Below, one piece after another: positions 25,296-60,625 of a stretch of 64,000 nt of DNA. The position numbers and the translations under genes are program-made. Origin of the DNA: an archaeon (GTDB lineage Archaea > Nanobdellota > Nanobdellia > Pacearchaeales > GW2011-AR1); NCBI GenBank assembly GCA_043821585.1, contig JBDRCQ010000002.1, positions 133,969 to 197,968 of the forward strand, written 5' to 3'. Numbering within the stretch: position 1 is the stretch's first letter; each line of letters opens with the position of its first letter. The notes under the pieces were generated by a model, which worked only from the letters and a program-made list of their open reading frames with translations, ran no database searches and was not told the origin of the DNA.

Positions 25296-25826
25296 ATGGA
25301 TAGCCAAGAATTTGTTGAGAGAAATATCATTCTTTTACTTGGGCAAGATGAGATGGGAGCAACCTTAACTCATTTGCAAAAAGAAATGTTTGCCCTGTCT
25401 GAAATTAAGGGTGATCTGAAAGAAGATTTGAATTTTGAGAAACATTATCTTGGGCCGTATTCAAGAGTCATTAGCGAGACCGTTCAATCTCCGTCTTACT
25501 TCTCGGATATGTTTGGGTTTGAAGGCGGGAGAATCTTCTTGTCTGATTCGGGTAAAAGAATTTATGAAGAAATGTTAAAGGATAATCTTGGGAATGAAGA
25601 ATTTCTGATTTTTATTTCTTCTTTGAAGGTTCTAAGGAAAATTTATGAAAGTTTATCTGAAAGAGAGTTGCTCTTTCTTGTTTATGAGACTTATCCAGAA
25701 TATAAAAAGAATTCCGCGATTTCAGATAGTCTCTTGAGAGAACCTCGTAGAAGCAGAATTTTATCTTCCCTCCTAAGAAAGGAAATTATTACCGAAGAGA
25801 GGTTTAAGGAACTTGAAAATGGATAA
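25296..25826 (+). CDS. hypothetical protein, weakly Panacea/DUF4065(SocA)-like
   Basis: THLQKEMFALSE…FEKHYLGPYSRVI resembles the KLlY…f.aw.yGPv pattern. It is the first gene of a translationally coupled trio. Confidence 0.3.
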   Translation: MDSQEFVERNIILLLGQDEMGATLTHLQKEMFALSEIKGDLKEDLNFEKHYLGPYSRVISETVQSPSYFSDMFGFEGGRIFLSDSGKRIYEEMLKDNLGNEEFLIFISSLKVLRKIYESLSERELLFLVYETYPEYKKNSAISDSLLREPRRSRILSSLLRKEIITEERFKELENG

Positions 25827-45212: not shown

Positions 45213-45420
45213 TTTTTGTTTTGGAGGTGGTTGTGACGCGATGCGTTCCCAACTCGCGGTCACGCACGTTGCCAATGTTAGACAATACTCGGTACGTGAC
45301 GCGCTCGCCCACCCTGCCCTGTTTGTGCCGACGCTTTTCGTTTAGCGAGTTTGCGTCGGCCGATTAATAGCGCATCGCTATCTTGTGAGGGTCGGGATTA
45401 CGCGTTATTAGGACCTCTTT
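45213..45420 (-). repeat. GC-rich structured leader element upstream of gap (family member E1)
   Basis: TCCCAACTCG lies at 45247-45256. There is an 8-bp perfect stem GCCGACGC/GCGTCGGC (45327-45334 / 45353-45360), plus the stem GTGACGCG…CGCGGTCAC and CCCACCCTG at 45308-45316. Confidence 0.5.
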
Positions 45421-45463
45421 GTTTATGTTAAGAAGTGGGAAGAGAGATTTATTAAGGTTGCGG

Positions 45464-46660
45464 TTAGTTTTCTTTGATTCTAGAGAATACAATTATCGCG
45501 GGAATTAAGATTATGCTTGAGATTAATATTGTATGTCTGCTTCCGATGGTGTCTACGAGGAGCCCCCCTATCGGTGCCGCGATGATGCTTATTACTGATA
45601 AGAACATTGATTCTACGGAGCCTATGCTCGCCCTTAGTTTGCTTGGAATAAATTTTTGGAAATATATCCTTTCTGCCGGTTTTCTCGCGAAGTCAAAGAA
45701 TGCATTTAAGAAGATTAATAGAAGGGCGAACGCTAGCACTTGTGCTAGTGAGATAATTAAAAGTGAAATTGCTGCGAATAGGATTGTCGTTATTATGAAT
45801 GTTCTTTCTCGGTTTTTGGCGTAGAACCTTTGAGTTATGAGTGGGGCGATTACACCCATAAGAGCAACGCCAGACCAAACGTACCCGAACGCGTAGTCCG
45901 GTAAGCCAAGGTCTTGTAGGAATGGAACCGATGCGATGTTTTCTGTCATTTCTGTTGCGAGAAGAACGAATGCAGAAGCGATTAAGAAATAGAAGATAAC
46001 TTTGTTTTTGTAGCTGTATTTTATGGCTTTAGAAGATTGTTGTTTAATCTCCTTGAGCGCATCCTTTGTTTCTATGCGTCTTTTTTTGTAGTTTTCTTTT
46101 GCAAAAATCATAAGAACTGTGGCAATGAAGAATGATGCGGCCGTTATGGGGAAGATTACTTTCGTGCCGAATATTCCAACTAATACCACGCCAATGAGTC
46201 CTGAAAAGATTAGTGCTGCGCTGTCGAAAACTCTTGTTTTCACAAAGAAACTTTGTAAAAGGTTTTTTTTGTTTTTCCTTATCAAATCGGTTGCCCACGC
46301 TTCATACGCTCCGGAGTTGAATGTTAGGGAAAACCCGATTAGGGCCGAAAGCGATAGCAAGGCATAATAGTTTGTTGTAAAAAACATTAAGAGGAAGAAA
46401 ACTCCTGTCAGGACATTCCCTAGAATGACTGAGAACTTTCTGCCGTATAAATCAGCTATCGCGCCAGTCGGAATCTCCGAAACGAGCATTATTGTGGCAG
46501 GGGCAGAATATGCAAGGATGCCAATTTGAAATAAACTGAATCCTAAGTCTTTTAGGTAGATAATTAGAAAGAGGGGATAAAAATAAAGTAAGGGAGAAAT
46601 TATGGAATCTAGGTAGAAGGGCCAGAGAAGTTTGAGTTCACCTTTTTGGAATAGTTTCAT
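45464..46660 (-). CDS. MFS transporter
   Basis: 398 aa with about 12 TM segments and the loop motif GAIADLYGRK (MFS motif A-like). Confidence 0.8.
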   Translation of the reverse strand: MKLFQKGELKLLWPFYLDSIISPLLYFYPLFLIIYLKDLGFSLFQIGILAYSAPATIMLVSEIPTGAIADLYGRKFSVILGNVLTGVFFLLMFFTTNYYALLSLSALIGFSLTFNSGAYEAWATDLIRKNKKNLLQSFFVKTRVFDSAALIFSGLIGVVLVGIFGTKVIFPITAASFFIATVLMIFAKENYKKRRIETKDALKEIKQQSSKAIKYSYKNKVIFYFLIASAFVLLATEMTENIASVPFLQDLGLPDYAFGYVWSGVALMGVIAPLITQRFYAKNRERTFIITTILFAAISLLIISLAQVLAFALLLIFLNAFFDFARKPAERIYFQKFIPSKLRASIGSVESMFLSVISIIAAPIGGLLVDTIGSRHTILISSIILIPAIIVFSRIKEN

Positions 46661-46759
46661 TTTATTTTAGGGCGAGGATCTCTGATAAATGTTTTGGTTA
46701 ATGATCAGTTTTTTCAAGGGTAGTTTAGATATTTCCTTGGAAAATACCTACTTTTTTGT

Positions 46760-46984
46760 TCAAGTACGACTGATTGGTCCGCCTAAAGCTCTAACTTCTT
46801 CATCTCCAAGGACTCCTTCTAGGAGTCTAATATTTTCCTTTAATTCTCTCCCGTGGAGTGTAAGTGAGTTTTCTTCTAATCTATCTGTGCATTTGTAATT
46901 GGTTGTTCTATAACTGGCAGCTTCGCTAAGAAGTTCTTTGTATCTGTCTCTTGCTCTTTCGGCTATTTGTGTTTCGTTTGTCAT
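46760..46984 (-). CDS. hypothetical protein (74 aa)
   Basis: ATG ORF with charged, helical composition. Confidence 0.35.
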   Translation of the reverse strand: MTNETQIAERARDRYKELLSEAASYRTTNYKCTDRLEENSLTLHGRELKENIRLLEGVLGDEEVRALGGPISRT

Positions 46985-47058
46985 GTTTTTTTAAGGCCAA
47001 ATAAGAATTTAAATCTTTCTATTGTTACTACTTTTAGATTACTGCTAATCTTCTTTTG

Positions 47059-47283
47059 TTAGGCTTCTACAGAAACGCATTCGCCTTTAAGGCAGAGGCA
47101 GTCGAGACTTCTGTCGCCTCGGTGTGAGCAGTCGCAGTCTTCGTTTGAGAAAGTTCTTAGTGCTACGATTAGTAGCATAAGGACGATTGCAATTGTTAGG
47201 ATTATTTTTGTTGGTTTTTTCATGCTAATCATTTGATCGGCTTCGTTAAAAATCTTTTCTTTTGCAGTTTTGAATTCCCTCAT
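47059..47283 (-). CDS. small single-TM protein with Cys-rich C-terminus
   Basis: The product starts MREFKTAKEKIF, has the TM helix ILTIAIVLMLLIVAL, and ends CDCSHRGDRSLDCLCLKGECV. The TTG extension in the track is rejected. Confidence 0.45.
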   Translation of the reverse strand: MREFKTAKEKIFNEADQMISMKKPTKIILTIAIVLMLLIVALRTFSNEDCDCSHRGDRSLDCLCLKGECVSVEA

Positions 47284-47433
47284 GAGTTTCACTTTCAGTG
47301 AAAATCCCAACTCGTAGCCACGCGCCCAGATTAGTGGCGCTTTGTGACGTATAACTTGCTCGCCCTACCTACGCCTCCTTCCCGCACCAATCAAACGAGT
47401 AAACCTGCAATCTTGGGCTTTTTCCAACAAATC
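47284..47433 (-). repeat. GC-rich structured element (family member E2) between the P-type ATPase stop and the small membrane protein gene
   Basis: TCCCAACTCG lies at 47305-47314 and GCCCAGATTAGTG at 47323-47335. There is a stem GCCAC…GTGGC, and GCTCGCCCTACC aligns with E1. Confidence 0.5.
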
Positions 47434-50076
47434 TTATATTTCCATCAAGTTTAGGAACTTCTTTTTGTTGTTTATCTTTTTCGCAATGTCAAATATTGCC
47501 AGGAGAGCGAGTGAAAAGGCTATCGCAATGCCCCAGTCAGCTAGGGTGATTGGTACGGTTTCGAAAACTTTGTTAAGTGGCGTGTAAACTATTGCGAGTG
47601 TGGCTATGAGTGAGATTATTGAAGCATAGACTAGATATTTGTTGACGAGTGGTGAGCGGTTTAGTACTCCTTTTCTGAATGATCTAAAGTTGAATGCGGA
47701 GGCGATTTCCAGCGTTATGAGGGATACCAAGGCGGTTGTTCTGGCGTATTCAATGTTTCGATCTAGGATATTGAACGTGAAGAAGAACACCGTTAGGACA
47801 AATAGAGCTAGCAGACTTCCTGTTAAGATTAACAAGATAATGAAGTTTTTGTTTAGGAGTTCTGATTTTTTTCTAGGTGTTGCGTCCATTACATCTGTTG
47901 AGGAGGGGTTGAAGCCAAGGGTGATGGCTGGTAGATTATCCGTGACAAGGTTCATGAAGAGAATTTGTAGGGCGAATAGTAGAGGGATTTGCCAGCCAAG
48001 AAGCGGAGTGAGTAGGACGCCGACAAAGATGATAGTTAGCTCGGCAAAATTGCAGGAAAGTTGATAGGTCACAAATTTTCTTACGTTTCTGAAGATTGTT
48101 CGGCCTTCTTTGATCGCCGAGACTATTGTTGTGAAGTCGTCGTCTTTTAATGTCAGGTCGGCGACTTCTCTTGAGACGTCTGTTCCGTTTTTTCCCATTG
48201 CAACGCCGATGTGTGCTTCTTTGAGTGCAGGTGCGTCGTTGACTCCATCGCCAGTCATTGTAACTATCTCGCCATTTGCTTTCAGAGCTTTGACTATCCT
48301 TAATTTATGTTCCGGTTTTACTCTGGCCAGAATGACAATCGAACCGATTACTTTTGAAAGTTCTTCATCTGTAATACGATCTAGTTCGTGCCCCTCCATT
48401 ACTTTTCCGCGAAGTCCGATTTGGTTTGCTATTGACAATGCAGTTTCTTTGTTGTCGCCTGTGATCATTTTAACTTTGATACCTGCTTTGAGGCAGATTT
48501 TGATAGATTCTTTGACGCCTTCTCGAGGCGGATCTTCCATGCCAACTAAGCCTAGGAAAATTAGGTCTTGTTCAAGTGTTCTCTTTTCAAATACTGAAAC
48601 TTTTTTGTAGGTAATTGCGAGAGTTCTCAATGTTTGAGATGTCATCCTAATGTTTTCTTTTAGGATTTTCTTTTTGTCCTTGGTTGTCAGTTTGAAAACG
48701 CCGTTGTGTCTTTGAATGTATGCGCATTTTTCCAGAATAAACTCAAGAGCGCCCTTTGAGAAGACGAAATTTTCTTTTTCGCGTTTGCAGACAACAGTCA
48801 TTCTTTTTCGTTCTGAACTGAAGGGTATTTCTTCGATTCTTTTTAGTTTTAGGTCCTCTTTGTAAAGGCCTTGTTTAGCAGCCATTATTAATAATGCTGC
48901 TTCTGTTGGCGTTCCGGAGATTTTGAATGTGTTTTCCTCGCCGGCTCTTTCTATTCGAGAGTCATTGCATGATATTGCAGCTCTTAACAACAGGTCCAGA
49001 ACAGGTTCCTTTCCGATTGAAATCTTTTTACCCGAGGAGGTGAAGTCTCCTGACGCTTCGTAACCTGTTCCAGAAATTTCTATTATTTTGTTGTCAGAGA
49101 ATATTCGGTTGACAGTCATTTCTCCTTTTGTGATTGTTCCGGTTTTGTCAGAGCAGATGACGGTTGTTTCGCCGAGCGTTTCGATGGTGGACATTCTGTT
49201 GACGATCGCATTTTCTTTGGCCATCTTTCTGGCGCCGCTGGCCAGGGTTGTTATTAATACAACTGGAAAACCTTCTGGAAAGGCAGAGACTGAAAGAGCA
49301 ATTACCAGGATTAGCGCTTCGATGACAAAGGTTTGCGAGAGCTCGGGGGCTCTCCAGAGCATTAGTAAGCCTGTTAAAATAGAGACTGTGATCGCAAGAG
49401 TGGCCATATATTTAGCAATTTTGTTGATTTTCTTTTGGAGAGGGAGTTCTTTTTCTGCGGTTGAGATCATGTGAGCAATTTTTCCAAATTTTGTGTTCAT
49501 GCCTGTGTGGAGAACATTGGCCAGGCATTTTCCGTTTACCACGAATGAACCCATGAATATGAGGTTTTTGTCAGAATATTTTTTAAGGTTTTTCGCAGTT
49601 TCTTTTTTTATCTCTTTGGATTCTCCGGTGAGGATTGATTCGTTTATGTAAAGCTCTTTTTCTTCCAGGATGATGCAGTCTGCAGGAATCTTCTCGCCGC
49701 TTCTGAGAACTAAGATGTCGCCGGGAACTATCTGGGTGGAAAGAATCTCTTGTTCTTTGTTGTCGCGGATCACTATAGAAACTGGTAGGATAATTTTTTT
49801 CAAGGCTTTGATTGCTTTGTCTGCTCTGTACTCTTGTATGAAACCAAGAGATACAACCATCACGATTACTGCGATTATTGTATACGCGGTGATTGACTTA
49901 CCTACAAAGAAAGAGATAAGCATTGCAGCGAGTAAGAGGTAAATTATGAAGTTGTTTTTTATTTGTCTTGTGAGAATTCTTAGAGGGGTATTTAGTGAGA
50001 CCTCTTGGATCTCGTTTGTGCCGAACCTCTCTAAAATGGCTTCAGCTTCTTCTTTTGTAAGACCTCTTTTTTCCAT
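47434..50076 (-). CDS. P-type cation-transporting ATPase (type II, Ca2+/cation-like)
   Basis: Motifs present are TGES, the phosphorylation site CSDKTGTIT, MITGDN and TGDGVNDAPALKEA. The protein is 880 aa with about 10 TM segments. Confidence 0.95.
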   Translation of the reverse strand: MEKRGLTKEEAEAILERFGTNEIQEVSLNTPLRILTRQIKNNFIIYLLLAAMLISFFVGKSITAYTIIAVIVMVVSLGFIQEYRADKAIKALKKIILPVSIVIRDNKEQEILSTQIVPGDILVLRSGEKIPADCIILEEKELYINESILTGESKEIKKETAKNLKKYSDKNLIFMGSFVVNGKCLANVLHTGMNTKFGKIAHMISTAEKELPLQKKINKIAKYMATLAITVSILTGLLMLWRAPELSQTFVIEALILVIALSVSAFPEGFPVVLITTLASGARKMAKENAIVNRMSTIETLGETTVICSDKTGTITKGEMTVNRIFSDNKIIEISGTGYEASGDFTSSGKKISIGKEPVLDLLLRAAISCNDSRIERAGEENTFKISGTPTEAALLIMAAKQGLYKEDLKLKRIEEIPFSSERKRMTVVCKREKENFVFSKGALEFILEKCAYIQRHNGVFKLTTKDKKKILKENIRMTSQTLRTLAITYKKVSVFEKRTLEQDLIFLGLVGMEDPPREGVKESIKICLKAGIKVKMITGDNKETALSIANQIGLRGKVMEGHELDRITDEELSKVIGSIVILARVKPEHKLRIVKALKANGEIVTMTGDGVNDAPALKEAHIGVAMGKNGTDVSREVADLTLKDDDFTTIVSAIKEGRTIFRNVRKFVTYQLSCNFAELTIIFVGVLLTPLLGWQIPLLFALQILFMNLVTDNLPAITLGFNPSSTDVMDATPRKKSELLNKNFIILLILTGSLLALFVLTVFFFTFNILDRNIEYARTTALVSLITLEIASAFNFRSFRKGVLNRSPLVNKYLVYASIISLIATLAIVYTPLNKVFETVPITLADWGIAIAFSLALLAIFDIAKKINNKKKFLNLMEI

Positions 50077-50153
50077 AAGCTAAATCTCTTTAGTTGGTGG
50101 GAAACAACCTTTTTATACTCTTTTCTCGTTGTTAAACCATAAAAGAGGTAAAA

Positions 50154-50990
50154 ATGAAAATACTTGCGTTAGATATCGGTGGGACGAATGTTCGTTCGGC
50201 GATTGTTAAGGGAATGAAGCTTTGTGATTATCGCAAGATTAAGACGCCGGCGAAACAGAAGGAAGAGGTTAAGTGCCTTTTTGATGTTGTCTCGGGTTAT
50301 GGTAAGGTTGATGCGATTTGTATATCGACTGCAGGTTTTTTGAGGGATGGGAAGATTGTTCTTTCTTTGAATAACGATATGGATGGCGTGCCCTTGCCGG
50401 GTGTTTTGAAGAAGAAATTTAGGACTAATGTATATGTGGGGAATGATGCGAATTGTGCGGCATTGGCGGAGTTTTATTATGGTGCTGGTCGGGGGCGGCG
50501 TAATTTTATTTTGATTACTCTTGGTTCGGGAATTGGTGGGGGTGCGATTTTGAATGGGAAATTGTATTGTGGTGGCGGTGGAGCGATTGAGCCCGGGAGT
50601 ATGAGGATTGATGGCGAGAAATATATCTGGGAGGAGTTGGCTTCGGGGAATGCTTCGATTAGGGTTGCTCGAGAAATGGGTTTTAAGGGGATCACGAGTC
50701 TGGAGTTAGAGCATAAGGCAGATGCAGGGAATGCGAAGGCTAAGAATGTTTATGACATTGTTGGAAAGAATATTGGTCTTGGGCTTGCTAATTTAGCTTA
50801 TATCTTTGATCCGGAGTTGTTGGTTGTTGGAGGGGGTTTTAGTAGAGTAAAGTACATTTACCCTGAAATGAATAAGACGTTCAAGAGATTGTACAAGTTG
50901 AATCCGAAGCCGAAGATTGTTAAGGCTAAATTTGGGGATGATGCTGGTTTGATTGGTGCTTCTTTACTTGTGAAGGAAAAAAATGGATAG
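50154..50990 (+). CDS. ROK-family sugar kinase (glucokinase-like)
   Basis: Motifs present are LALDIGGTNVR, GNDANCAALAE and GSGIGGG. Confidence 0.8.
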   Translation: MKILALDIGGTNVRSAIVKGMKLCDYRKIKTPAKQKEEVKCLFDVVSGYGKVDAICISTAGFLRDGKIVLSLNNDMDGVPLPGVLKKKFRTNVYVGNDANCAALAEFYYGAGRGRRNFILITLGSGIGGGAILNGKLYCGGGGAIEPGSMRIDGEKYIWEELASGNASIRVAREMGFKGITSLELEHKADAGNAKAKNVYDIVGKNIGLGLANLAYIFDPELLVVGGGFSRVKYIYPEMNKTFKRLYKLNPKPKIVKAKFGDDAGLIGASLLVKEKNG

Positions 50991-51768
50991 TGCGATGGCA
51001 GTTGCAGGTCAGCAGGAACAAGCTCCTCCGGTGCAGCAGCCGAGGTCTAAGATCTGGATTTATGTAATGGTTGCGGTTTTTATTGTGATAGTTGTGATTG
51101 CTAGTGTTGCAGTGGTTTATCTTACCAATAAGCAAAGCAGTAAGGAGGAAGTTGTTGAAGCCCATATGACTTGGTTTAGGTGTTTGAGTTTGTGTCCTCT
51201 TATTCCGTATGAATCTCTCGTGAATGATGAGGTGGTTCGTACAGTTGACCCCAGTTGCATGTATGGATGTAATGATGAAGGGCATAGGGTCGAGTGGGAA
51301 TATGGCTATGTTTTATATCCCGGACCTATCGAGGAGGCTATTTCCCAGGGATATCTGGACTGTTTTAATCTGGCTAGGGCAGATTTAGATTTTGATCATG
51401 AAACTTGTTATAGTGAGTTGTTTGATAGGTATAAAGAGTATTACGATTTCAGCGATTATGAGCTGCCACATTATCAGGTTTATAGTTTGACGCTTGACGG
51501 TTTTACTTGTTATGAGGATCGTCTTGAGGTTAGTGTCACGTATAGCGAGGGAGATGATGTGGGGGGCAATGTTACAGTGGTGCTTGAGGGAGGAGATTAT
51601 ACTACTAAGGCTGTTCAGTTTGATGCCATTAATGTGGGGGATAGCGAGACTTATGTGGTTGTTTATGATGAACAGGGATTAGACTTTGATTATCTTAATG
51701 GCACTTTTTCTACGTCATTACTTATTCAAGGAAAAGGCACTACCTTGCAAGAGTGGTCTCAATGTTAA
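50983..51768 (+). CDS. membrane-anchored extracytoplasmic protein, unknown function
   Basis: The N-terminal TM helix is IWIYVMVAVFIVIVVIASVAVVYL. The C-terminal domain is acidic and Cys-containing. The start overlaps the ROK stop. Confidence 0.5.
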   Translation: MDSAMAVAGQQEQAPPVQQPRSKIWIYVMVAVFIVIVVIASVAVVYLTNKQSSKEEVVEAHMTWFRCLSLCPLIPYESLVNDEVVRTVDPSCMYGCNDEGHRVEWEYGYVLYPGPIEEAISQGYLDCFNLARADLDFDHETCYSELFDRYKEYYDFSDYELPHYQVYSLTLDGFTCYEDRLEVSVTYSEGDDVGGNVTVVLEGGDYTTKAVQFDAINVGDSETYVVVYDEQGLDFDYLNGTFSTSLLIQGKGTTLQEWSQC

Positions 51769-51802
51769 TCTAGCAAGGACCTAAATATTTTTATAGGGTT
51801 TT

Positions 51803-52357
51803 TTGGCTGGGCTTGTCATGAGAATTAGAGATAAATTGCCTTCTGCTTTCGTATTGTGGCATAAGGGGCTTGTAATGGTTGGCGTTAGGGGAATGTTTTC
51901 TGGGGAGCTTGGTGAGATTGGGGCATTGTTTGGCCAGGAGGGTTTTGGAGTTTCTCAGGTCGTTAAACAGCCTGAAAGGGATTTCTTGGCGGTTTTTGCT
52001 ACAGAGCAACCAATTGTTGATTTTACTGTTGATTTGTATGGGTCTGGGGCTTCGGCGATTGTTGCTTGGAGTTTGGATGTTGATAGAGTTGTGCCATTGA
52101 TTGAGCGAGTTGTGGATAGTCCTTCTTTTTCGTTGGATTCTGTTTTAGATCCTGGATTTGCTCGAACGCTTCAGAGCGAGTTTGTGATGGAATGCGCTGC
52201 TTATGAAATGTGTGAGGTGGCTTCTCGACAGAGTGGAATTGGGTTTGACGATTTATTTGCTACGATACGTTATGGCAATTTTTTGTATCAGTATAGGGGA
52301 GTTCCGGAGGAAGGGGCGTTGCAGTTGGCGGGCGAGAAGTATGGTTGTTCTTTGTGA
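51803..52357 (+). CDS. hypothetical protein (likely start ATG 51818)
   Basis: 184-aa ORF in a more GC-rich block. It shows faint resemblance to nucleotide-sugar dehydrogenase segments only. Confidence 0.4.
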   Translation: MAGLVMRIRDKLPSAFVLWHKGLVMVGVRGMFSGELGEIGALFGQEGFGVSQVVKQPERDFLAVFATEQPIVDFTVDLYGSGASAIVAWSLDVDRVVPLIERVVDSPSFSLDSVLDPGFARTLQSEFVMECAAYEMCEVASRQSGIGFDDLFATIRYGNFLYQYRGVPEEGALQLAGEKYGCSL

Positions 52358-52509
52358 GGGGCTACCACAACAATCTTTTTATAGCGTTTATTGGTGGGAT
52401 TTTTATGAAGGTTATATTAGAAACGCCAGGAAGGGGAGAAACTGTTAGTTTGGATCAGCCTGGATTGTATAAGATTGGTGCGCCTTAGGGTTTTAGCGGC
52501 GAGTTAGAC

Positions 52510-52857
52510 GTGAGGGTGGATGTTATGAAGATTGATATGCATCCCTCTTCGCCATATGAGTCTCATAGGGGAAGGCTTTTTGAGGGAAAGGTCGGAGGTC
52601 TTGCTGATGATGAGAAATTTAAACCCTTATCCGAGAAGCCTGTGTTGTTGCATTTGACTAAGGATTCTGCAGTGTTTTATGATTCTGCTGGGGAGCAAGG
52701 AGTTCGGCCTGATTGGAGTGGGTGGGGTCAAGAGAAAGCAGATGATATTGTTGATGTTTCGTCTCGTGTGGGGTGTGGTCATAGCGAGCTTTATATGAGG
52801 GGCGTGAGGTTTCATCTTTTTGTTGAGAAAGATGAAAAATCTTGTGGTGCTGTTTGA
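52510..52857 (+). CDS. hypothetical protein; same frame as an upstream 27-codon ATG ORF (52405-52485) separated only by TAG 52486-52488
   Basis: Track ORF with a GTG start. ATG 52525 has the upstream GAGGGTGG. The upstream in-frame piece is MKVILETPGRGETVSLDQPGLYKIGAP. Confidence 0.45.
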   Translation: MRVDVMKIDMHPSSPYESHRGRLFEGKVGGLADDEKFKPLSEKPVLLHLTKDSAVFYDSAGEQGVRPDWSGWGQEKADDIVDVSSRVGCGHSELYMRGVRFHLFVEKDEKSCGAV

Positions 52858-52861
52858 TTAA

Positions 52862-52930
52862 TTTAAAGAAAATAGCTTTAATTATAGGTGAGGCCGAAGG
52901 CCGAACGCGCTCGGCATGATTTGGATTTTT
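52862..52930 (+). ncRNA. conserved GC-rich hairpin element, copy 2
   Basis: TTAAAGAAAATAGCTTTAAT…GAGGCCGAAGGCCGAACGCGCTCGGCATGATTTGGATTTTT aligns with 24809-24880. The hairpin is GCCGA-ACGCGC-TCGGC. Confidence 0.35.
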
Positions 52931-52998
52931 GCAGGGGTTCGGGCAAGGAAATTATGGGAGATCAAAGAGTTTTTATAGCTCAACACTGGTAATTTTTC

Positions 52999-53202
52999 AT
53001 GGAAAGAGCGTATTGTCAAAATTGTGGAAGGGAAACAAATCACGTTGTGGTGGATGATCCCGGAACAACGGGCGGCAGGAAAGATTAGTACTCTTGTTAT
53101 GAGTGTGGCGAAGATAGAAAGAGATTATTCGAAGAGGGGGTTCGAATTGATTCTCAGGAAAGAACTTCTGTGCTTCCTGAAAACTCTTCAATGGCCGTGT
53201 AA
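52999..53202 (+). CDS. zinc-ribbon small protein interrupted by an in-frame TAG (53086-53088)
   Basis: The sequence is MERAYCQNCGRETNHVVVDDPGTTGGRKD-TAG-YSCYECGEDRKRLFEEG…MAV-TAA. The two CxxC pairs lie on either side of the TAG, and the second half has no start codon of its own. Confidence 0.45.
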
Positions 53203-53256
53203 GGTGCGATTGTGACTGAATAATTTTTTAAACCCTTGATCTTCTCTTTGTGGGAG

Positions 53257-54381
53257 ATGCATTACCACATAATTTTGACGGAGCTGTGCAATTCGAAGTG
53301 CAGGTATTGTTATGGGAAGAGCATGTGCGAGGAGAATGATCTGAACAAGAGGTTTAAGTTTGACTTTGATGCGCCGCAGGTTTCTGAGGTTACTACGGAA
53401 AAGATTAGGGAGTTTCTATTGAAGGATAAGGGGCCGACGTTGGTGTTTTACGGCGGGGAGCCGTTGTTGCAGATGGATCGTATTAAGGAATTGATCGATT
53501 CTTTGTCTGACGTGCCCAATATTCAGTTTAGGGTGCAGACGAATGGGAAACTGCTTGATGGGTTTGATATAAACTATTTGAAAAAAATTGGGAAGATTCT
53601 TGTTTCGATTGATGGGACGAAGGAGCGGACCGATTTTAATAAAGGGAAGGGGACTTATGACAGGGTTGTGGGGAATTTGCGCCGGGTTCGGGAATTAGGT
53701 TACGATGGGGAGATTGTTGCACGGATGTGTGTTTCTGAGTTTGGGGATGTTTATGAGCAAGTGATGCATCTTAAGAGTTTAATTGATGAAGGACTTTTTG
53801 ATTCGATACATTGGCAGTTGGATGTTGGGTTTTATTCTTGTGATTATGATTTTGATAGGGTTAGCAAGTTCGTTGAGGAGTATAATGCCTCGATAGATAA
53901 GCTGGTTGAGTGGTGGGTTGGGGAGATGGAAAAAGGCAAGGTTTGGAAGTTGTATCCGTTTGTGGGGCTGGTTGAGAATTTGCTTTCTGGGAAGAAGACG
54001 AAGTTGATGTGTGGAGCAGGGCATTCGGGATATACGATAACGACTGATGGCAATTTGGTGGCGTGTCCGATAATGGGTTGTATGCCTGATTTTTATTGCG
54101 GGACACTTGATTCTGCTCCGAGTGGGTTGCGGGAGATTGGACCAGCTTCGCGGTGCGAGGGGTGTGCTTATTTGAAGGATTGCGGAGGGCGGTGTTTGTA
54201 TGTGAATAGCGTGAATTTGTGGCCGGCGGAGGGGTTGGATATGGTTTGTTCTTCGGTTAAACATTTGATTGATTTATTGAAAGGGAAGTTGGAGGAGATC
54301 AAGGGTTTTATTGACTCGGGCAAGGTTAGCGAGAAGGACTTTGGGTATGAAAAGTATTTTGGGCCGGAGATTATTCCTTAG
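53257..54381 (+). CDS. radical SAM enzyme with C-terminal SPASM-type auxiliary cluster domain (peptide/protein-modifying maturase-like)
   Basis: CNSKCRYC (CxxxCxxC) lies at about 53287-53310. The C-terminal Cys motifs are CGAG…ACP and CEGCAYLKDCGGRC. ATG 53257 lies within the track ORF. Confidence 0.8.
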   Translation: MHYHIILTELCNSKCRYCYGKSMCEENDLNKRFKFDFDAPQVSEVTTEKIREFLLKDKGPTLVFYGGEPLLQMDRIKELIDSLSDVPNIQFRVQTNGKLLDGFDINYLKKIGKILVSIDGTKERTDFNKGKGTYDRVVGNLRRVRELGYDGEIVARMCVSEFGDVYEQVMHLKSLIDEGLFDSIHWQLDVGFYSCDYDFDRVSKFVEEYNASIDKLVEWWVGEMEKGKVWKLYPFVGLVENLLSGKKTKLMCGAGHSGYTITTDGNLVACPIMGCMPDFYCGTLDSAPSGLREIGPASRCEGCAYLKDCGGRCLYVNSVNLWPAEGLDMVCSSVKHLIDLLKGKLEEIKGFIDSGKVSEKDFGYEKYFGPEIIP

Positions 54382-55900
54382 CCTCGTTAAATGCTTTGAC
54401 GTTTTTCTTGAGTTTTTTAAACTCTCTAACAAATTCTTCTTCTGTTGGGGCGTTTCTTCCATCTCTTGAAATAACTCTGTTGTATATATCATGAATGTTT
54501 GAGCAGTAAATTAACGAAGTTCCGGCGTACCTGCTGTTTGCGATTATTTCTTTTCTCTTTTCCGTGTAGGCTCTTGCGATTAGGTACCTTACTTTACGCG
54601 CGAATTCTTTGGCTCGCTTTAGACCATCTCTTTCTTCTATCTTGCCCAATATTGCTTTGTACTTTTCGTATTCTTTGTGTGTCCTGAAATCTCCATTTGA
54701 TCCCTTTTTACTGCAGTATGGTTTTGGAGGGTGGTATTCTATAAACTCTCCATTAATCATAAAGTCAATACCTCCACAATTTAATCCACCATCTCTTATT
54801 TGCCAGGTCTTTCCTTGTTCTAATCCCCATTCTGGGATGTATCGCTCGAATAATGTTGCTATTGCTGCCTCTTCTTGGGAATGGAATTTGTTTCCTAGCC
54901 AGCATATCCTTTGGCTTTCTCTTGCAAGTTTGTTTCCACTTCTTTTTCCAACTGCAGACATCTTTTTTCTATGCGTTGGATCTTGCCACAACTTTCTTGC
55001 CCAATCACTTGTCTGCTTTTTTCTCCTTTCTCGGTATTCCTGATTGGCCCAAAGTCGTTTACTTTTTTCACTCATTAGTTTAACCATTTTATCCCGGTTT
55101 TTCCCTTTTGCCCACATTTCTCTTGATCTTTTGGACAGTATCTTTGCATGTTTTTCTCTAGCACCTTCGTCTTGCCATCTTTTTCTTACGCCTTGATCTT
55201 GTACGGCAGTGTATTCGGGGTCTTGCCATAATCTTTTGGATAGTTGGCTTTGGAGAATTTTTATGCGATACGTCCTTTCGTCCTCCGGCAGATTTTTTGT
55301 TAGAACTCTCCTAACCTTTAGGGCAGCAGTGTTTAATTCATCTGCTAGTTCTTTGGTTGTTCTTAATTGGTTAATTTTGCCAGTTTGATGGGCCCTGATT
55401 TCATTCAATGCGGCTGCAACAATCTCTTCTTTGATCTCTCGGGCTAGAAGATCCTTTGTTGTTTGGATCTTTGATTTTTTTGGTTGATTAGGTCTTACCT
55501 TTGTTTGACCAAGCACTGTTTTTCGCCCACCTTTTTTTGCTTTTTCCTTACATCTTAAAGTTCGGAGTGCTTCAGTTCTTTCTCTGGCGGAGATTCCCAC
55601 TTTTTTCATTAATTTATTTACTGCCGATCTGGATATGCCGAAATCCTTTGCTAAATCTCTTTGACTTCTCCCTTGAGAATGATACTGGAGCTGGATGTAA
55701 TTCGTCAAGCCTCCGAATTCTTCCTTGTAACCTTGTTTTTCTTCCAGGTCTAACCAAAAAGTATACCAAGAAGGCCGGGATGATTCTAGCTGTAGTTGTT
55801 CAAGAGGTTTTATTTGTGGCGTGTTTTGATCTTTTGAGACTATTTCCACTAAGTTTTCAGTTTCTTTATCTGTTCTTATTAGCGGGGGAATCTTTTCCAT
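54371..55900 (-). CDS. HTH- and repeat-containing protein with C-terminal PD-(D/E)xK/DUF559-like segment (possible selfish-element nuclease)
   Basis: The HTH is RSQRDLAKDFGISRSAVNKLMKKVG. There are about 4 repeats of the S(K/E)(R/K)..(R/K)(L/M)W(Q/A).(P/Q)EY(R/T) type. GIDFMINGEFIEYHP resembles the DUF559 core. Confidence 0.4.
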   Translation of the reverse strand: MEKIPPLIRTDKETENLVEIVSKDQNTPQIKPLEQLQLESSRPSWYTFWLDLEEKQGYKEEFGGLTNYIQLQYHSQGRSQRDLAKDFGISRSAVNKLMKKVGISARERTEALRTLRCKEKAKKGGRKTVLGQTKVRPNQPKKSKIQTTKDLLAREIKEEIVAAALNEIRAHQTGKINQLRTTKELADELNTAALKVRRVLTKNLPEDERTYRIKILQSQLSKRLWQDPEYTAVQDQGVRKRWQDEGAREKHAKILSKRSREMWAKGKNRDKMVKLMSEKSKRLWANQEYRERRKKQTSDWARKLWQDPTHRKKMSAVGKRSGNKLARESQRICWLGNKFHSQEEAAIATLFERYIPEWGLEQGKTWQIRDGGLNCGGIDFMINGEFIEYHPPKPYCSKKGSNGDFRTHKEYEKYKAILGKIEERDGLKRAKEFARKVRYLIARAYTEKRKEIIANSRYAGTSLIYCSNIHDIYNRVISRDGRNAPTEEEFVREFKKLKKNVKAFNEAKE

Positions 55901-55994
55901 AATGCCCCCTAAAAAAGAGACTATATCAAACTATTTCGAAAAAATGTGAAGAATAGTTAATTTTAAATAGATCTTATACTATTTGTTAAGTAAT

Positions 55995-56943
55995 ATGAGA
56001 TTTTTAATTAAAGAATCTGAAGCAAGGAAGAAAGAAGTTAAATTGAATGTTAAAGATAGGAAGTTGATTCAACTACTTGTTCAGAATTCCCGTATGGGGG
56101 TATCTGAATTGGCAAAAAGACTTCAAATTTCTAAATCTGCAATTACGCAGAAGATCCGGGCGTTGCAGGAGAAGGGGGTATTGATGGCGCCAGTTACTTA
56201 TGTTTCTGTCAAGGTTGAAGAAAAACCCTTCTATTTTCTTCAGATTGCGACTGGCTTAGGCCAAGATACGGAATTAACTTCTCAGGACTTGCTCTCGATC
56301 GAAGGTGTTTCTGCAATACTCTGGTATAACGGATCTTATAATCTTCTTCTGGGAGTTTTTCACGAAGACATTCACCAAGCAATCCAGGAAGTTGGAAATT
56401 ATTTAACAATCAAGAAGCTGCGCATCATGCGCGTTACAGATAATTGGTTTCATTCTCCGCATTTGTTTGAAGAGGTAGCTGATAAGGGGGCAACTTTTTT
56501 GCGGACTAACCCAAAGATTCTTAGTTCAGATAGAAAAATTCTTAACACTTTATTTGAAAATCCTCGTGCAACCTTGCTTGAGATCGCAGAAAAAACACGT
56601 AGTGCACCGATAACTATAAAGAAACGGATGGAAGAAATGAAAAAATCAGGAGCTATAATTCAATTTAGCAATTATGTAAATCCATGGTTATGTGGGAAAG
56701 ATATTGTATCAGTTCATTTTTCCGTTCTTGGCAGAGAGAACATTGATAAGGTAATAAAAAAAACTTCTATCCTTGCCTCAAACAGGGAATGTATGGGAGC
56801 TTGATCATGAGTGGAATCTGAATGTTGTTTTTTGGGTTGACAATCAGATTGAGGTTGGCAAGATTCTTGAAGACTTAAGCAAGAATTATACAGGAATTTT
56901 AGATATGGACGTTATGGTTATGGTAAAAATGGTCGGACGTTAG
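55995..56943 (+). CDS. Lrp/AsnC-family regulator with two HTH units (paralog of 42712-43665), frame-disrupted at an A8 run
   Basis: It begins VKDRKLIQLLVQNSRMGVSELAKRLQISKSAITQKIRALQEKGVLM. The frame breaks at A8 56756-56763. The +1 frame continues LLSLPQTGNVWELDHEWNLNVVFWVDN… to TAG 56941-56943, matching the paralog's C-terminal pattern. Confidence 0.7.
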
Positions 56944-56959
56944 TATTTTGGGCAGGAGA

Positions 56960-57706
56960 TTATTCCTTAGCGATTTTCCAGAAGAATTCGAATTGTTTTA
57001 TGAAGCTTTTTGCAACCTCTTCATTTTCTATTGTGATGAACACGAGTTCTGCTGAAAATATGCCGATGATTGTGAGGTTTCCGATTATGTTTATTGAAAC
57101 TGGTGAAATGTAGGGTATGTATCGTACTTTTGCGTTTTTTTCAGCAGGGACTTTATCTTTCTTTGATTCTTCAGAGTGCAGCTTTAAAACTTTGTATCTT
57201 CTCTTTTCCCTCTTCTGTTGGTGGCTTGTGGTAAAGAAATTCCAAATTGTTTTATCGTAGTATTGTGGTGACGCAATGCCGAATACGTAGAGGGTTTCAT
57301 TTTTGCCGAATTCAAGTTCTTTTGCAAATGCTGTTTTCATGCCCTTTAGCCCGGTAAATATTTCAATTGCTAATTTGCTTTTCTTTAGGTTTACTTTTTC
57401 AAGTAACTGGGGGAGTATCTTTTGGTAGTTCGTTTCTTGGTTGGTTATTATAGACTTTTTTTCTTCTAGGTAACTTATGACTCTTTTTGGATTTGCTGGT
57501 GAAAAGCATAGGACTCCCGCTTTCTTTATTTCTGAGACGAGTCCTTTCTTTTTTAGAGAATCGAGTATTTCATAGATTTTCCCTGAATTGATCCCTGAGT
57601 GTCTTAGGATTTCTCCTGTTTTTGTTTCTCCTAGTTCGAGTAGCGAGAGGTAGACTCTTATTTCATTTTTTGTCAGGCCGATTTCTTCTAACACGCTTTC
57701 TATCAT
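56960..57706 (-). CDS. TrmB-family transcriptional regulator
   Basis: The N-terminus LEEIGLTKNEIRVYLSLLELGETKTGEILRHSGINSGKIYEILDSLKKKGLV is typical of TrmB. Confidence 0.75.
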   Translation of the reverse strand: MIESVLEEIGLTKNEIRVYLSLLELGETKTGEILRHSGINSGKIYEILDSLKKKGLVSEIKKAGVLCFSPANPKRVISYLEEKKSIITNQETNYQKILPQLLEKVNLKKSKLAIEIFTGLKGMKTAFAKELEFGKNETLYVFGIASPQYYDKTIWNFFTTSHQQKREKRRYKVLKLHSEESKKDKVPAEKNAKVRYIPYISPVSINIIGNLTIIGIFSAELVFITIENEEVAKSFIKQFEFFWKIAKE

Positions 57707-57794
57707 ACTTGTTGTAAGTCTTGGTGCTTTATAAGTTTTACTCTACACCAGGTGGGGGATTATCTTTATGTATGCCTTTTTGAGTTTTTCTTAG

Positions 57795-58910
57795 ATGGAT
57801 AATGTAGTTTCAAGACAGAGAAAGAAAACAGGCTTCGTTCTTTTGATAGCGTTAGCCCTGTTGGTTTTGGCGCTGTCTCTTGTTAATTTTACAGGGTTTG
57901 CTATTCTTGGTAATGCTCAGGCTGATACGATAACTATTGGTGCGACGTTTCCTTTAACGGGAGAGTTGTCAGTATATGGCGAGGCGTATAAGAATGGTGC
58001 GATTCTGGCTCAGGAAGAGATCAATCGTAATGGTGGAATTGATGGGAAGAAATTAAAGATTAGTTTTCAGGATAACAAAGGGGACGCAAAGACTGCTGTT
58101 GGCGACGTTATGTACCTAATTAATGTCGAACGAGTTCCGATCATTCTTAATTCTATGGAGTACCTCACTCTTGCTTCGAAGGATATTGCTGAGAAGAACA
58201 AGGTGATCATGTTGACGTTTACGACTTACTTGCTCTCTGAGAAAGATGACCCTCGTTATTTGTATAAAGATTCTTGGGATTTTGGGATTATTGGAAGAGG
58301 CTTTGGTGAAGCAGCTAATGGGATTGGATCTAAGAGATTAGCAGTCGTTAGGCTTAAAGACTCATCTTATTCTGATCTTCAGTCCAGCTTTTTTGGAGTG
58401 TATAACGGAATAGTTGTTATTGATGAAACTTATAATTTTGGTGAGAAAGACTTTCGAACTATTCTCGCGAAAATTAAAAATGAAGATGTTGACACAATTT
58501 TGGTTTACTCTTATCCGGTTGATGTTGGCTTGATTTTGAAACAGATGGCTGAATTGGATATGAGGAGTTACAATTTGATTACAGCCGAGGGAACTGAGCA
58601 GTATGCTATGTCGAGAAATCTTGACTTGCTTCAGTCAACTCATGCTATATCTTATATGGGCTCTGAGTTGCAAGGTCCTGATTGGTTTGTTCGTGAATAT
58701 AAAGAACGATTTGGGGCGGATCCGCGGCCAGACAGTTATTATGCGTACGATTCTGTCACAATGTTTGGTAGGGCCATGGGTGCTTGTGGGGATGACGTTG
58801 ATTGTATAAGAAAAGAAATTTCAGTTAATTTTGACGAGTTTCATAACCGAGAAAGGGTATTGCCTATTGTTCGGTATGATGGGGGGTGGTACGAGATAGA
58901 TGTTTCATAA
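57795..58910 (+). CDS. ABC-transporter substrate-binding protein (LivK/branched-chain amino-acid type)
   Basis: A signal anchor is followed by ITIGATFPLTGELSVYGEAYKNGAILAQEEINRNGGIDGKKLKISFQDNKGDA. Confidence 0.8.
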   Translation: MDNVVSRQRKKTGFVLLIALALLVLALSLVNFTGFAILGNAQADTITIGATFPLTGELSVYGEAYKNGAILAQEEINRNGGIDGKKLKISFQDNKGDAKTAVGDVMYLINVERVPIILNSMEYLTLASKDIAEKNKVIMLTFTTYLLSEKDDPRYLYKDSWDFGIIGRGFGEAANGIGSKRLAVVRLKDSSYSDLQSSFFGVYNGIVVIDETYNFGEKDFRTILAKIKNEDVDTILVYSYPVDVGLILKQMAELDMRSYNLITAEGTEQYAMSRNLDLLQSTHAISYMGSELQGPDWFVREYKERFGADPRPDSYYAYDSVTMFGRAMGACGDDVDCIRKEISVNFDEFHNRERVLPIVRYDGGWYEIDVS

Positions 58911-58911
58911 C

Positions 58912-59547
58912 TTAATATTTCAATACAAAATCTTTTTCTTCTCTGGAGCCGTATTTATCATGGGCTGCGTCTATTATCTGGAGGACTTCTTTCAACGAGT
59001 TGGCATGAAAGAGTAGTTTGAAGTCGCGTTTGTCGAAGTAGCCTCTGCTTAGGGGCTGGTCTTTGAGCCATTCAAGGAGACCCTCCCATTGCTTGCCCAT
59101 TAAGATTATGGGGATGCGGTTGATGTGCTTGACTTGAAGGACTTGCCAGGTGTAGAATAGTTCTAGGAGGGTGCCGACGCCGCCGTGAGCGACTACGACT
59201 GCGTTGCTTAAGAGCATGAAGTTGTCTAAGCGGTTAGAGAATCTTTTGAATAGTTTTTCAACTTGGACACCCTTGTTTGTTTTTTGTTCGTGTGGGAGTA
59301 CAATGTTTAGGCCGAATGAAACTGCTTTGGTTTCTTTTGAACCTTCATTGTGGCCGAGGTTTGCAGCAGCCATTATTCCCGGGCCGCCTCCGGTGACTAC
59401 GTCGATGCCGCGTTCGCCGAGCCTTTTTGCCAGTTCGTGAACTTGTTTGTATGTCTGGCCGTTTCTTTTTATTCTAGACGAGCCGAATATGCTAACTCTG
59501 AAACGTTTCCTTTTGAGTTCTTCTTCGAAATTGCCTCTTTTTTTCAT
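58912..59547 (-). CDS. LOG-family protein (TIGR00730 / cytokinin riboside 5'-monophosphate phosphoribohydrolase-like)
   Basis: It has GGGPGIMAAAN and HGGVGTLLELF (the PGGxGTxxE type). Confidence 0.85.
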   Translation of the reverse strand: MKKRGNFEEELKRKRFRVSIFGSSRIKRNGQTYKQVHELAKRLGERGIDVVTGGGPGIMAAANLGHNEGSKETKAVSFGLNIVLPHEQKTNKGVQVEKLFKRFSNRLDNFMLLSNAVVVAHGGVGTLLELFYTWQVLQVKHINRIPIILMGKQWEGLLEWLKDQPLSRGYFDKRDFKLLFHANSLKEVLQIIDAAHDKYGSREEKDFVLKY

Positions 59548-59631
59548 GAACGAATAAAGCGAGGGGGGTTTTTAATTGTTGTTGGCTGCCCCCATAAAAT
59601 TATCATGCTCCCAACTCGCCGGACCGAAGGG
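59548..59631 (-). repeat. GC-rich element (family member E3) in the leader of the LOG gene
   Basis: TCCCAACTCG lies at 59609-59618. In the minus sense it reads CCCTTCGGTCCGGCGAGTTGGGAGC, with a stem GGGGG…CCCCC. Confidence 0.45.
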
Positions 59632-59838
59632 TTATTGGTTTTTCATTTTTTTGAATAATTTGTAGAAAATTGCGGAGAGCCCTGTTAGTCCGATTAAGAA
59701 GGTTAGGAAGTTGCTTCCTCTTGGTTCACCATCGATCCACCGATACATTGCATTAACAAACAGGTTTCCGAAGACACCTCCTGCTAAGCCGAATGCGGCT
59801 CCTGTGTAAAACTGTTTTTCTAACCTTTTGCTTTTCAT
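59632..59838 (-). CDS. small two-TM membrane protein (68 aa)
   Basis: ATG ORF with hydrophobic helices. Confidence 0.45.
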   Translation of the reverse strand: MKSKRLEKQFYTGAAFGLAGGVFGNLFVNAMYRWIDGEPRGSNFLTFLIGLTGLSAIFYKLFKKMKNQ

Positions 59839-59840
59839 AT

Positions 59841-60473
59841 CTAAACTTTGGCAATCTCTTTTAGCAATTTTTCAGCGGTTCGTGGATGGGCTCTTGCGAT
59901 TGCGCTGGCTATGAGAACTCCGTGGCAGCCAAGGTTCTTCGCTGTGGCCACATCTTTCGCCGAGGAGATTCCTGCTCCGCAGAGTGGCGCGATTGATGAG
60001 CCGTTGAATAGTTGGGCGAATTTTTTAACTTCATCTTGTCTGTATTCTGTGATTGATTTTCCTGTGCCGATTAGCTTTTTGTCTTCGAAGGCGATTGCTT
60101 CTGGTTTTAATTGGGCTAGTTTTTTTGCTTCCTTTATTGATGGGGCGCAAAGGACGACTCGGAGGCCGGCTTTGTGGGCTCTTGGGACTGCTTGCTTTAG
60201 GATTTTGAATGACAATGGATGCTCTGAATGGTTTAGTAATGTGCCAAGTGCTCCGACCGCACGAGTTGTTTCAGGTAATAAAAATCCTGTTGCGCGGCCG
60301 CCTTCTGCATCAATGTGTTGGGCGAAAACGTGGAGTTTTGTTTTTTCATGGACTTCTTCGATGTCCACTGCAGGGACTGCTACAATCGCCTGCGGGAGGT
60401 ATTTTTCTATCAATTTAGCTAGCTTTAGAGTTTTGGGCCCAGATGTGTAGTTCTTGAAGTTTATGATTATCAT
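59841..60473 (-). CDS. tpiA: triosephosphate isomerase (archaeal type)
   Basis: It has MIIINFKNY, LLNHSEH and GAGISS. The true start is ATG 60473. The track extension to 60560 reads through the GC-rich leader. Confidence 0.9.
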   Translation of the reverse strand: MIIINFKNYTSGPKTLKLAKLIEKYLPQAIVAVPAVDIEEVHEKTKLHVFAQHIDAEGGRATGFLLPETTRAVGALGTLLNHSEHPLSFKILKQAVPRAHKAGLRVVLCAPSIKEAKKLAQLKPEAIAFEDKKLIGTGKSITEYRQDEVKKFAQLFNGSSIAPLCGAGISSAKDVATAKNLGCHGVLIASAIARAHPRTAEKLLKEIAKV

Positions 60474-60570
60474 CTTTTGGATTTTAGCAGGTTTACGATT
60501 CCCTCTTGCTGCGACTGTCATCGCGACCCACCCTGGCCGCCCAAATCCATTCCGCCCCAAATTATTGGTA
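60474..60570 (-). repeat. GC-rich leader element upstream of tpiA (family member E4)
   Basis: TCCCTCTTGCTG at 60500-60511 is identical to 28105-28116 in the pgk insertion. CCCACCCTG at 60527-60535 is shared with E1. Four G-tracts occur in the minus sense (60527-60558). Confidence 0.5.
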
Positions 60571-60625
60571 AACCTACAATGCCTCTTTTGGATAAATATT
60601 TAAACGAGGTTAAATTATTAAAGTT

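Follow-up and report, generated by a model that had tools for sequence, protein, structure and literature searches.

Hairpin-rich elements beside three glycolytic genes

We analysed a 64-kb stretch of contig JBDRCQ010000002.1 (hereafter the window; GC content 40%), which comes from a Pacearchaeota-like DPANN archaeon and carries the glycolytic genes gap, pgk and tpiA on its minus strand (Table 1). As an earlier note on this DNA had stated, each of the three carries a copy of a structured element: E1 in the gap leader, E4 in the tpiA leader and an in-frame copy inside pgk. A further copy, E2, overlaps the annotated start of a small open reading frame (ORF), and a short candidate segment, E3, lies near a LOG gene. 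We suggest that E1, E2, E4 and the pgk insert are probably diverged copies of a small, hairpin-rich insertion family of the miniature inverted-repeat transposable element (MITE) type, belonging to a Pacearchaeota-like DPANN clade. The assignment follows from their small size, lack of an ORF, inverted-repeat ends, flanking duplications of 8–10 bp and the empty orthologous sites found in relatives. The comparison set consisted of ~10 related contigs (labelled L001, L002, L126 etc.), all fetched around pgk; the relatives of the window's phosphoglycerate kinase (PGK) are labelled Pacearchaeota, Nanoarchaeota or Woesearchaeota.

Table 1. Genes, element copies, promoter and flanking repeats, in window coordinates unless a related contig is named
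Feature	Position	Strand	Remarks
pgk	27516-28790	-	archaeal-type
pgk insert	28052-28197	-	in-frame, stop-free copy, 146 nt
gap	44220-45212	-	bacterial-type; ATG 45210-45212
E1	45223-45413	-	insertion between displaced Shine-Dalgarno (SD)-like AAAGAGG and gap ATG
hp1 in E1	45247-45310	-	model R1: 64.6 bits, E=4.5e-15; 10-mer at 45247-45256
gap promoter, TFB-recognition element (BRE)/TATA box AACCGCAACCTTAATAAATC	45446-45465	-	conserved with and without the element (nine upstream regions aligned by eye)
E2	47239-47430	-	long form; core profile matches; better-preserved; counterparts in L126 and L207 (below)
hp1 in E2 (GGGCG AGC - stem - ACGAG TT GGGA)	47305-47365	-	57 bits, E=6e-13; 10-mer at 47305-47314
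E3	59584-59631	-	10-mer CGAGTTGGGA and short hairpin, 5' of LOG-gene TATA box
tpiA	59841-60473	-	short, archaeal; ATG 60471-60473
E4 downstream direct repeat ATCCAAAAGA	60473-60482	-	final A doubles as first base of the tpiA ATG
E4	60483-60583	-	short form; core profile E=2.7e-17; better-preserved
E4 upstream direct repeat ATCCAAAAGA	60584-60593	-	exact 10/10; null frequency (p) 0.0025; target-site duplication
Copy in L126	L126 7720-7956		better-preserved; counterpart of E2
Copy in L207	L207 2270-2476		better-preserved; counterpart of E2; direct repeat TCTACACC, 8 exact, p=0.018
Copy in L002	L002 18643-18776		better-preserved
Copy in L205	L205 1462-1592		better-preserved; direct repeat exact 10-mer TAAAAGACAA, p=0.005
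Copy in pgk of L001			better-preserved; direct repeat TCAAAACA(G/A)C, 8 exact, p=0.016

The strings on which the earlier note had built a family are present as described. The exact 10-mer TCCCAACTCG occurs at 45247, 47305 and 59609, each time on the plus strand (0.08 occurrences expected; 0 of 100 shuffles reach three), E1 and E2 have GCTCGCCC(A/T)ACC in common (45303 and 47358), E1 and E4 CCCACCCTG (45308 and 60527), and E4 and the pgk insert the 12-mer TCCCTCTTGCTG (60500 and 28105). The extra stems of E1, GCCGACGC/GCGTCGGC, lie at 45327/45353. A third copy of TCCCTCTTGCTG at 18900, inside the S1-domain coding sequence of rpoE', looks like an ordinary run of S1-domain codons and is best taken as chance.

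Could unrelated GC-rich leaders share such strings by chance or composition? A generic repeat finder run on the window reports no family, the copies having only modules in common, and when one mismatch is allowed the 10-mer is unremarkable (5 observed vs 3.1 expected). Against this stand the count of the exact 10-mer, a constant spacing GGGCGAGC-N43-46-CGAGNNGGGA in E1, E2 and L001, and profile and covariance-model matches with E=1e-7 to 1e-17 that include copies on which the models had not been trained. (The looser pattern GGGCGAGC-N38-52-CGAGNNGGGA gave at least 120 matches in a scan of the sequence collection, probably by chance, and was not used.) Such an origin is refuted for E1, E2, E4 and the pgk insert, and as a general account it is barely credible; for E3 it is possible. 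Both the core profile and the hp1 covariance model miss E3, whose structure does not exceed that of shuffled sequence (z=+1.5); it is a doubtful remnant, at most a decayed fragment.

Compositional arguments for the family hold in part. The segments singled out as GC-rich do lie at 0.49–0.53 against a window mean of 0.40 (standard deviation 0.06), but the 95th percentile is 0.50 and many coding stretches equal them, so that the values stand out among intergenic sequence without being unique. A plus strand rich in C, claimed earlier for all copies, is seen in E2, E4 and the pgk insert but not in E1 (G 58, C 53) or E3 (G 23, C 19).

A modular architecture with covarying helices

The elements measure 101–237 bp and contain no ORF, most of the six frames being interrupted by stop codons. 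In the better-preserved copies, read on the minus strand, the modules follow one another in a set order: an outer arm CTCTGTYSA... (partner TSRACAGAG); an inner arm P1 (GCAGGTTTAC, TGGATTTTAC or CGAGATTTTC); a G-rich tract TTGGGG... ending in GGGCG; an optional hairpin, hp1, of ~55 nt, closed by tandem G-A pairs (GAGC...GCGAG); GGGA(T) and a short hairpin, hp2 (TTCGAC GACA GTCGAA, TTTCACT GAA AGTGAAA or GCGA TGACAG TCGC); A-AWGNGGGAATC (AAGNGGGAATC); and the closing arms, P1' and the outer arm. The outer arms are perfect in L207 (GCTCTGTTGA/TCAACAGAGC) and read CTGTCCAGAG/CCGGACAA in L205 and CTGTTC/GAACAG in L001. In E2 the outer arms TTGTTGGAAAAAG ... TTTTTAACGAAGCC enclose P1 (GCAGGTTTAC/AAAACTGC), followed by the G-rich tract, hp1, hp2 (the TTTCACT form) and GAGGGAATTC. 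E4 consists of P1 (GTAGGTTTAC/GTAAACCTGC), the G-rich tract, hp2 (the GCGA form) and AAGAGGGAATC. E1 is a more diverged copy without a clear terminal repeat, and the core profile does not match it; its 5' hairpins (AGCGATGCGCT and GCCGACGC...GCGTCGGC) are followed downstream by the G tract CAGGGCAGGGTGGGCG, hp1, and GGGA with the hairpin ACGCATCGCGT.

These helices covary. P1 is paired in 7 of 8 copies, with 2–4 different Watson-Crick pair types between copies at 5 of its 10 positions, and hp2 occurs with three different stem sequences, all of them paired. The hp1 unit, GGGCG-AGC-(stem-loop)-GCGAG-NN-GGGA, folds by RNAalifold into 15 pairs, six of which have compensatory changes, and its base is closed by a 2x2 GA/GA loop; two adjacent U-G pairs exist on the G-rich strand only. 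The 10-mer CGAGTTGGGA is the 3' junction of hp1, and GCTCGCCC is its 5' junction on the other strand. Structure supported in this way by covariation in hp1 and hp2 is also compatible with a mobile element.

A covariance model of hp1 (R1), built from seven units and searched over 487 kb, finds nine copies, the ninth being the first of two tandem units in L126; the matches outside the training set are in L209 (E=5e-13) and L207 (E=1e-7). All copies found lie on the pgk strand, and those in the window are confined to E1 and E2. In gap leaders, hp1 is present in the window and in L209 and missing from the otherwise orthologous L002 (GGGCG|GGAACGC). L126 has it doubled. It is thus an optional module, and its absence from L002 fits deletion there as well as nested insertion elsewhere.

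Empty sites, direct repeats and targets

Comparison of the same intergenic regions in relatives, a check that the earlier note had proposed, revealed insertions that are present or absent at orthologous sites. In five gap upstream regions (L127, L128, L207, L208 and L210) the TATA box is followed by ATAAAAGAGG (the SD sequence) and the ATG within ~50 nt, with no insert. In the window, L002, L126 and L209, 140–190 extra nt separate the SD-like AAAGAGG from the gap ATG; the inserts of L002 and L209 are related to E1, and that of L126 is more diverged. L210 shares the MFS-gap gene order of the window, yet its two genes are only 58 nt apart. Because E1 lies downstream of a conserved promoter, we infer that it should be transcribed as part of the gap leader.

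At tpiA, E4 sits between the TATA box (~60597-60604) and the ATG, so that the locus reads TATA - ATCCAAAAGA - 101-nt element - ATCCAAAAGA-TG; once the element and one repeat are taken out, TATA box and ATG stand as far apart as is usual for a leaderless gene. No element is present at tpiA in L126, the one close relative sampled. Copies also occur at unrelated sites: in L002 a full element precedes the TATA box of rpoE, a site that is empty in the window, and the copy of L207 lies 3' of gap.

Direct repeats were sought in the 25 nt outside the ends defined by the inverted repeats; the null consisted of 25-mers paired at random, taken from the same sequence with equal spacing. Four of the seven copies bounded by inverted repeats have repeats of 8–10 bp (Table 1), and Fisher's combined p over all seven is 1.1e-4. 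Repeats in the gap leaders are less cleanly bounded: ATAAAACAAAAGA / ATAAAAAAAGAGG in L002, GCAATAAA / GCAATAAA in L209 and AAACAAAGA / AAACAAAAA in the window. The motif AAAA[G/C]A is found in 5 of 6 targets and in 17.5% of the regions from -30 to +1, compared to 6.8% of background (2.6-fold enrichment). This enrichment just 5' of start codons would offer a simple reason for the distance of 21–61 nt before the ATG that the earlier note had given.

Of the two explanations offered earlier, a mobile structured repeat that prefers a certain insertion context is the better supported, through empty orthologous sites, covarying inverted-repeat ends, direct repeats of 8–10 bp and A-rich targets. On the best reading, the elements are old transposable elements, non-autonomous and inserting into A-rich sequence close to start codons. 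A transposase acting in trans would have inserted the copies at the DNA level, cutting its target with a stagger of ~10 bp and preferring AAAA[G/C]A, a motif that in these genomes is enriched immediately upstream of start codons. Insertion between TATA box and ATG would turn copies into transcribed leaders, with whatever effect on expression this may have. One copy would have landed in a loop-coding part of pgk, surviving there since it is in frame and free of stops.

Several starts in the ORF list have to be read with this in mind: as had been pointed out, the list runs gap, tpiA and the ORF at 47283 into the elements. The gap ATG is at 45210-45212; the ATG at 47283 lies within E2. The first 15 codons of this ORF (47059-47283; MREFKTAKEKIFNEA) are the 3' arm of E2 (47239-47283), and the true start is probably the ATG at ~47232, giving a small membrane protein that begins MISMKKPTK....

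The insertion in pgk

The pgk insertion of the earlier note is confirmed; it is in frame and adds ~45 amino acids. Compared with the Pyrococcus PGK (2cun), the ~45 extra residues fall in an alignment gap between residues 202 and 248. The copy retains the conserved 5' end (CTCTGTCCAAAGTTCACGAGAT...); its modules are rearranged, its 3' arm is truncated, and it gives no match to the core profile. Only two of 15 aligned PGKs have such an insert, that of the window and P0005/L001 (69% identical; Pacearchaeota UBA73), both at the same position; it is absent from the closest relatives (74–76% identical) and from P0006, the sister of P0005. The two inserts have the 5' end (CTCTGTCCAAAGTTCACGAGATTTT / CCTGTTCAAAATTCGCGAGATTTT) and the closing helix in common and differ in the interior; at 146 and 185 nt, both are in frame and without stops. 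In an AlphaFold2 model, residues 203–246 have a pLDDT below 50 and lie between a confident helix (190–202) and a confident strand (250–252). If translated, the insert would fit a tolerated surface excursion, a predicted disordered loop.

The same codon of pgk carrying an insert in two lineages, together with closing helices that bring the flanks together, could also suggest intervening sequences at the RNA level, bulge-helix-bulge or other introns that would be cut from the leaders and from pgk mRNA. We regard this as very unlikely. By inspection, two 3-nt bulges with a 4-bp helix are not found, P1 being a continuous helix of 9–11 bp with unpaired flanks; splicing would not require the pgk inserts to be in frame and stop-free; and the flanking direct repeats point to insertion at the DNA level.

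Two observations concern the surroundings of pgk in relatives. In L001 (11418-14868) the insert-bearing pgk is directly followed on its 3' side by cas1-cas2-cas4 and a Cas12f/TnpB-like gene, and L124 (Pacearchaeota UBA73) has an identical region. In L209, a 70-amino-acid ORF with a PGK Pfam match (12128-12340) lies 1 kb 3' of the intact pgk, beyond a Fic gene, perhaps as a piece of pgk that a rearrangement left behind.

Mobile DNA or regulatory RNA

A number of results sit less easily with an origin by transposition. Three of the seven inverted-repeat-bounded copies (L002-rpoE, E2 and its L126 counterpart) have no flanking repeat, and E4, which is without outer arms, has its repeats at a distance of 6 and 4 nt from P1, on the outside. 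A Pfam scan of 26 of the 35 window ORFs of at least 230 amino acids gave no transposase, and no longer element with matching ends turned up in the sampled loci. Copy number is low: the core profile finds no further core copies in 452 kb of related sequence, and an hp2-specific pattern finds only two loci in metagenomes, L204 (the same locus as L002) and L205, and one chance match but otherwise none in viral contigs. The window itself holds two core-type copies, two diverged copies and one fragment, which are alike only to ~60%, and E2 is closer to its L126 counterpart than to E4, so that similarity is lower among the copies of this genome than between counterparts in different genomes. The hairpins hp1 and hp2 covary and have conserved U-G pairs on the G-rich strand only, and this strand folds better than its complement by 10–25 kcal/mol (z-scores against shuffles are similar for both strands); a transposase needs neither property. 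All copies have one orientation, which may be relative to genes or to replication since the sampled loci are all syntenic. The association of copies with all three glycolytic genes of the window has a chance of ~3e-4 (57 crude gene calls and five element positions; post hoc), and the core is ~85% identical between E1 and L002 (counted by eye) compared to 66% in the coding part of gap. Transposition leaves unexplained why the copies cluster at gap, pgk and tpiA and why they all point one way.

The later points in this list are those that would favour an exapted cis-acting RNA, in which the G-rich tract and hairpins act on the gap, tpiA and pgk mRNAs through a common protein or ligand, stability or translation. 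The same reading gains from the four of nine gap leaders that carry an element between TATA box and ATG, and from G-richness that runs against the local strand skew. However, the elements are missing from the other five gap leaders and from the tpiA of L126, the pgk copy of the window is rearranged relative to that of L001 and lies, in frame, inside a coding sequence, and further copies stand outside these transcripts (5' of the rpoE promoter in L002, 3' of gap in L207) or beside unrelated small ORFs. That elements seem enriched near gap and pgk in relatives is, moreover, a biased result, since their loci were all fetched around pgk. No Rfam family applies either: Rfam 15 gave no match at gathering thresholds, and the matches to E1/E2, E4 and L205 with E up to 10 are at chance level. 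We therefore consider this alternative unlikely. The shared 5'-untranslated-region (UTR) regulatory RNA of gap, pgk and tpiA that the earlier note had offered as its second option is not supported, on the same absences and positions, and neither is a dedicated glycolysis riboswitch or conserved regulatory leader, since relatives lack the element at these genes and copies occur at unrelated sites.

A narrower form combines both ideas: a mobile family taken over as a transcript-borne module, with one trans-acting factor that would bind the G-rich tract and the tandem-GA hairpin and thereby couple three consecutive triose-phosphate steps. The reading stays alive through the presence of copies at all three genes, their common orientation, hairpins that covary and are specific to a strand, and a core conserved above its gene; we hold it to be improbable.

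Strand-specific folding and uniform orientation relative to replication would also be accounted for by single-strand hairpin elements of the REP/PATE kind, moved by an HUH enzyme (IS200/IS605-like or RAYT) that reads hairpins on one DNA strand. G-T wobbles in the hairpins are indeed confined to one strand, the copies in relatives are all co-oriented with pgk, and the window copies are all opposite to the replication-type GC skew. On the plus strand G exceeds C and T exceeds A for genes of both strands (GC skew +0.33 and +0.10), and cumulative GC skew rises monotonically across the window; with this replication-type, monotonic pattern the whole window therefore lies on one replichore, and the elements are G-rich on the minus strand, opposite to the plus-strand skew. 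But elements of this kind insert without target duplication, whereas here there are flanking repeats of 8–10 bp; the ends are long two-armed inverted repeats and not subterminal hairpins; and no HUH gene is present among the window ORFs tested. Such a mechanism is accordingly a remote candidate.

Several further candidates were rejected. G-richness and G-U pairs as a by-product of local mutation bias can be dismissed because the elements are G-rich on a strand that otherwise has C>G. A tRNA, split tRNA or other known RNA is ruled out by ARAGORN and Rfam, whose sole match over the window is a tRNA-Ser at 19314. A "split Shine-Dalgarno" bridged by P1 would require too long a distance, the spacing in E4 being ~17 nt plus the helix. 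The idea of a G-quadruplex as a feature of the family, raised earlier, did not survive motif and G4Hunter scans as a unifying feature either: the window has a single canonical motif, at 28068-28082 (GGGCGGGTGGGTGGG), and no window element reaches the G4Hunter threshold of 1.5, which 28 coding or other plus-strand regions do; among the copies in relatives, L205 scores 2.44 and L001 2.16.

G-rich patches with G4Hunter scores of 2.1–2.2 (42966-43048, 2374-2428 and 4198-4243) lie inside or at the ends of plus-strand genes, one of them in an Lrp/AsnC-type regulator gene (42712-43665). On the plus strand, an intergenic G-rich tract, GGCAGGGCGGGGGGAATGAAGGAGTGAGGG (25178-25247), just 5' of the ORF 25296-25826, recalls the G-rich core of the elements and has no hairpins or inverted repeats.

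Other features of the window

Near the glycolytic genes lie a TrmB-family sugar-specific regulator (56960-57706) and a ROK-family kinase (50154-50990); TrmB-type regulators control glycolysis in Thermococcales. A GC hairpin with conserved flanks, GGCGCGAAG(G)CGCC, occupies a divergent intergenic region (24816-24877) and recurs near a PfkB kinase gene in L002 (11758-11857, reverse complement) and L125 (2594-2670, reverse complement). It is a separate conserved non-coding element without an Rfam match. A 30-nt direct repeat (97% identical; 54353-54382 and 56942-56971) surrounds a 2.6-kb segment that contains a 509-amino-acid ORF without a Pfam match (54371-55900, minus) and a double winged-helix protein (55983-56804, plus); the segment (54353-56971) may be an integrated element with att-like ends. 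Finally, the ORF 4269-5219 has a Hint/intein-like domain (Vint, PT-HINT) in its C-terminal half.

Relation to known elements and implications

The family resembles MITEs in being small and non-coding, with terminal inverted repeats, target duplications and presence/absence between relatives; like MITEs, which are mostly intergenic and often co-transcribed with neighbouring genes, its copies lie largely between genes. A high MITE density has been reported for one Woesearchaeal and one Altiarchaeal genome (PMC11602168; review PMC10969869). The present elements differ in having no known cognate transposase, a very low copy number and high divergence in the available sequence, in their covarying internal hairpins with one-strand G-U pairs and single orientation, and in a G-rich core with an optional hairpin module at a fixed internal site.

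In Rickettsia, MITE-like elements are known to have inserted in frame (PMC10969869). Rickettsia palindromic elements (RPEs; Ogata et al. 2000, per PMC10969869) are likewise palindromic, ~150 bp long and found in frame in a housekeeping enzyme gene, where the fold tolerates the peptide. RPE families, however, keep an open frame and are intragenic in nearly half of cases, whereas here only the pgk copy is intragenic. An open-frame element of the Rickettsia type was rejected for this family, since only the pgk copies are open and the others have 1–6 stops in most frames. Correia, ERIC and BOX-type elements (partly PMC10969869) also place inverted repeats in 5' and 3' UTRs and form long hairpins in the transcript. 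Unlike the present family, they come in tens to hundreds of almost identical copies and are known to provide promoters, RNase III sites or IHF sites. Fungal mitochondrial GC clusters and double-hairpin elements are GC-rich palindromes in AT-rich genomes, sometimes in frame and polymorphic between strains; they differ from the archaeal elements in domain of life and mechanism and have no sequence relation to them. What is new is this family as a probable further member of the known MITE kind, with strand- and locus-specific features left over.

For the annotation of the window, this means that the extensions of gap, tpiA and the 47283 ORF are artefacts and that the "long" PGK is an insertion allele. 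As a worked example from the small genome of an uncultivated DPANN archaeon, the window has mobile elements both in the stretch that separates a promoter from its start codon and in the reading frame of a core enzyme. It also illustrates that a preference for A-rich targets can look like a common 5'-UTR motif. If the regulon reading were true, it would be a rare archaeal case of a mobile element wiring a metabolic regulon post-transcriptionally in a reduced DPANN genome.

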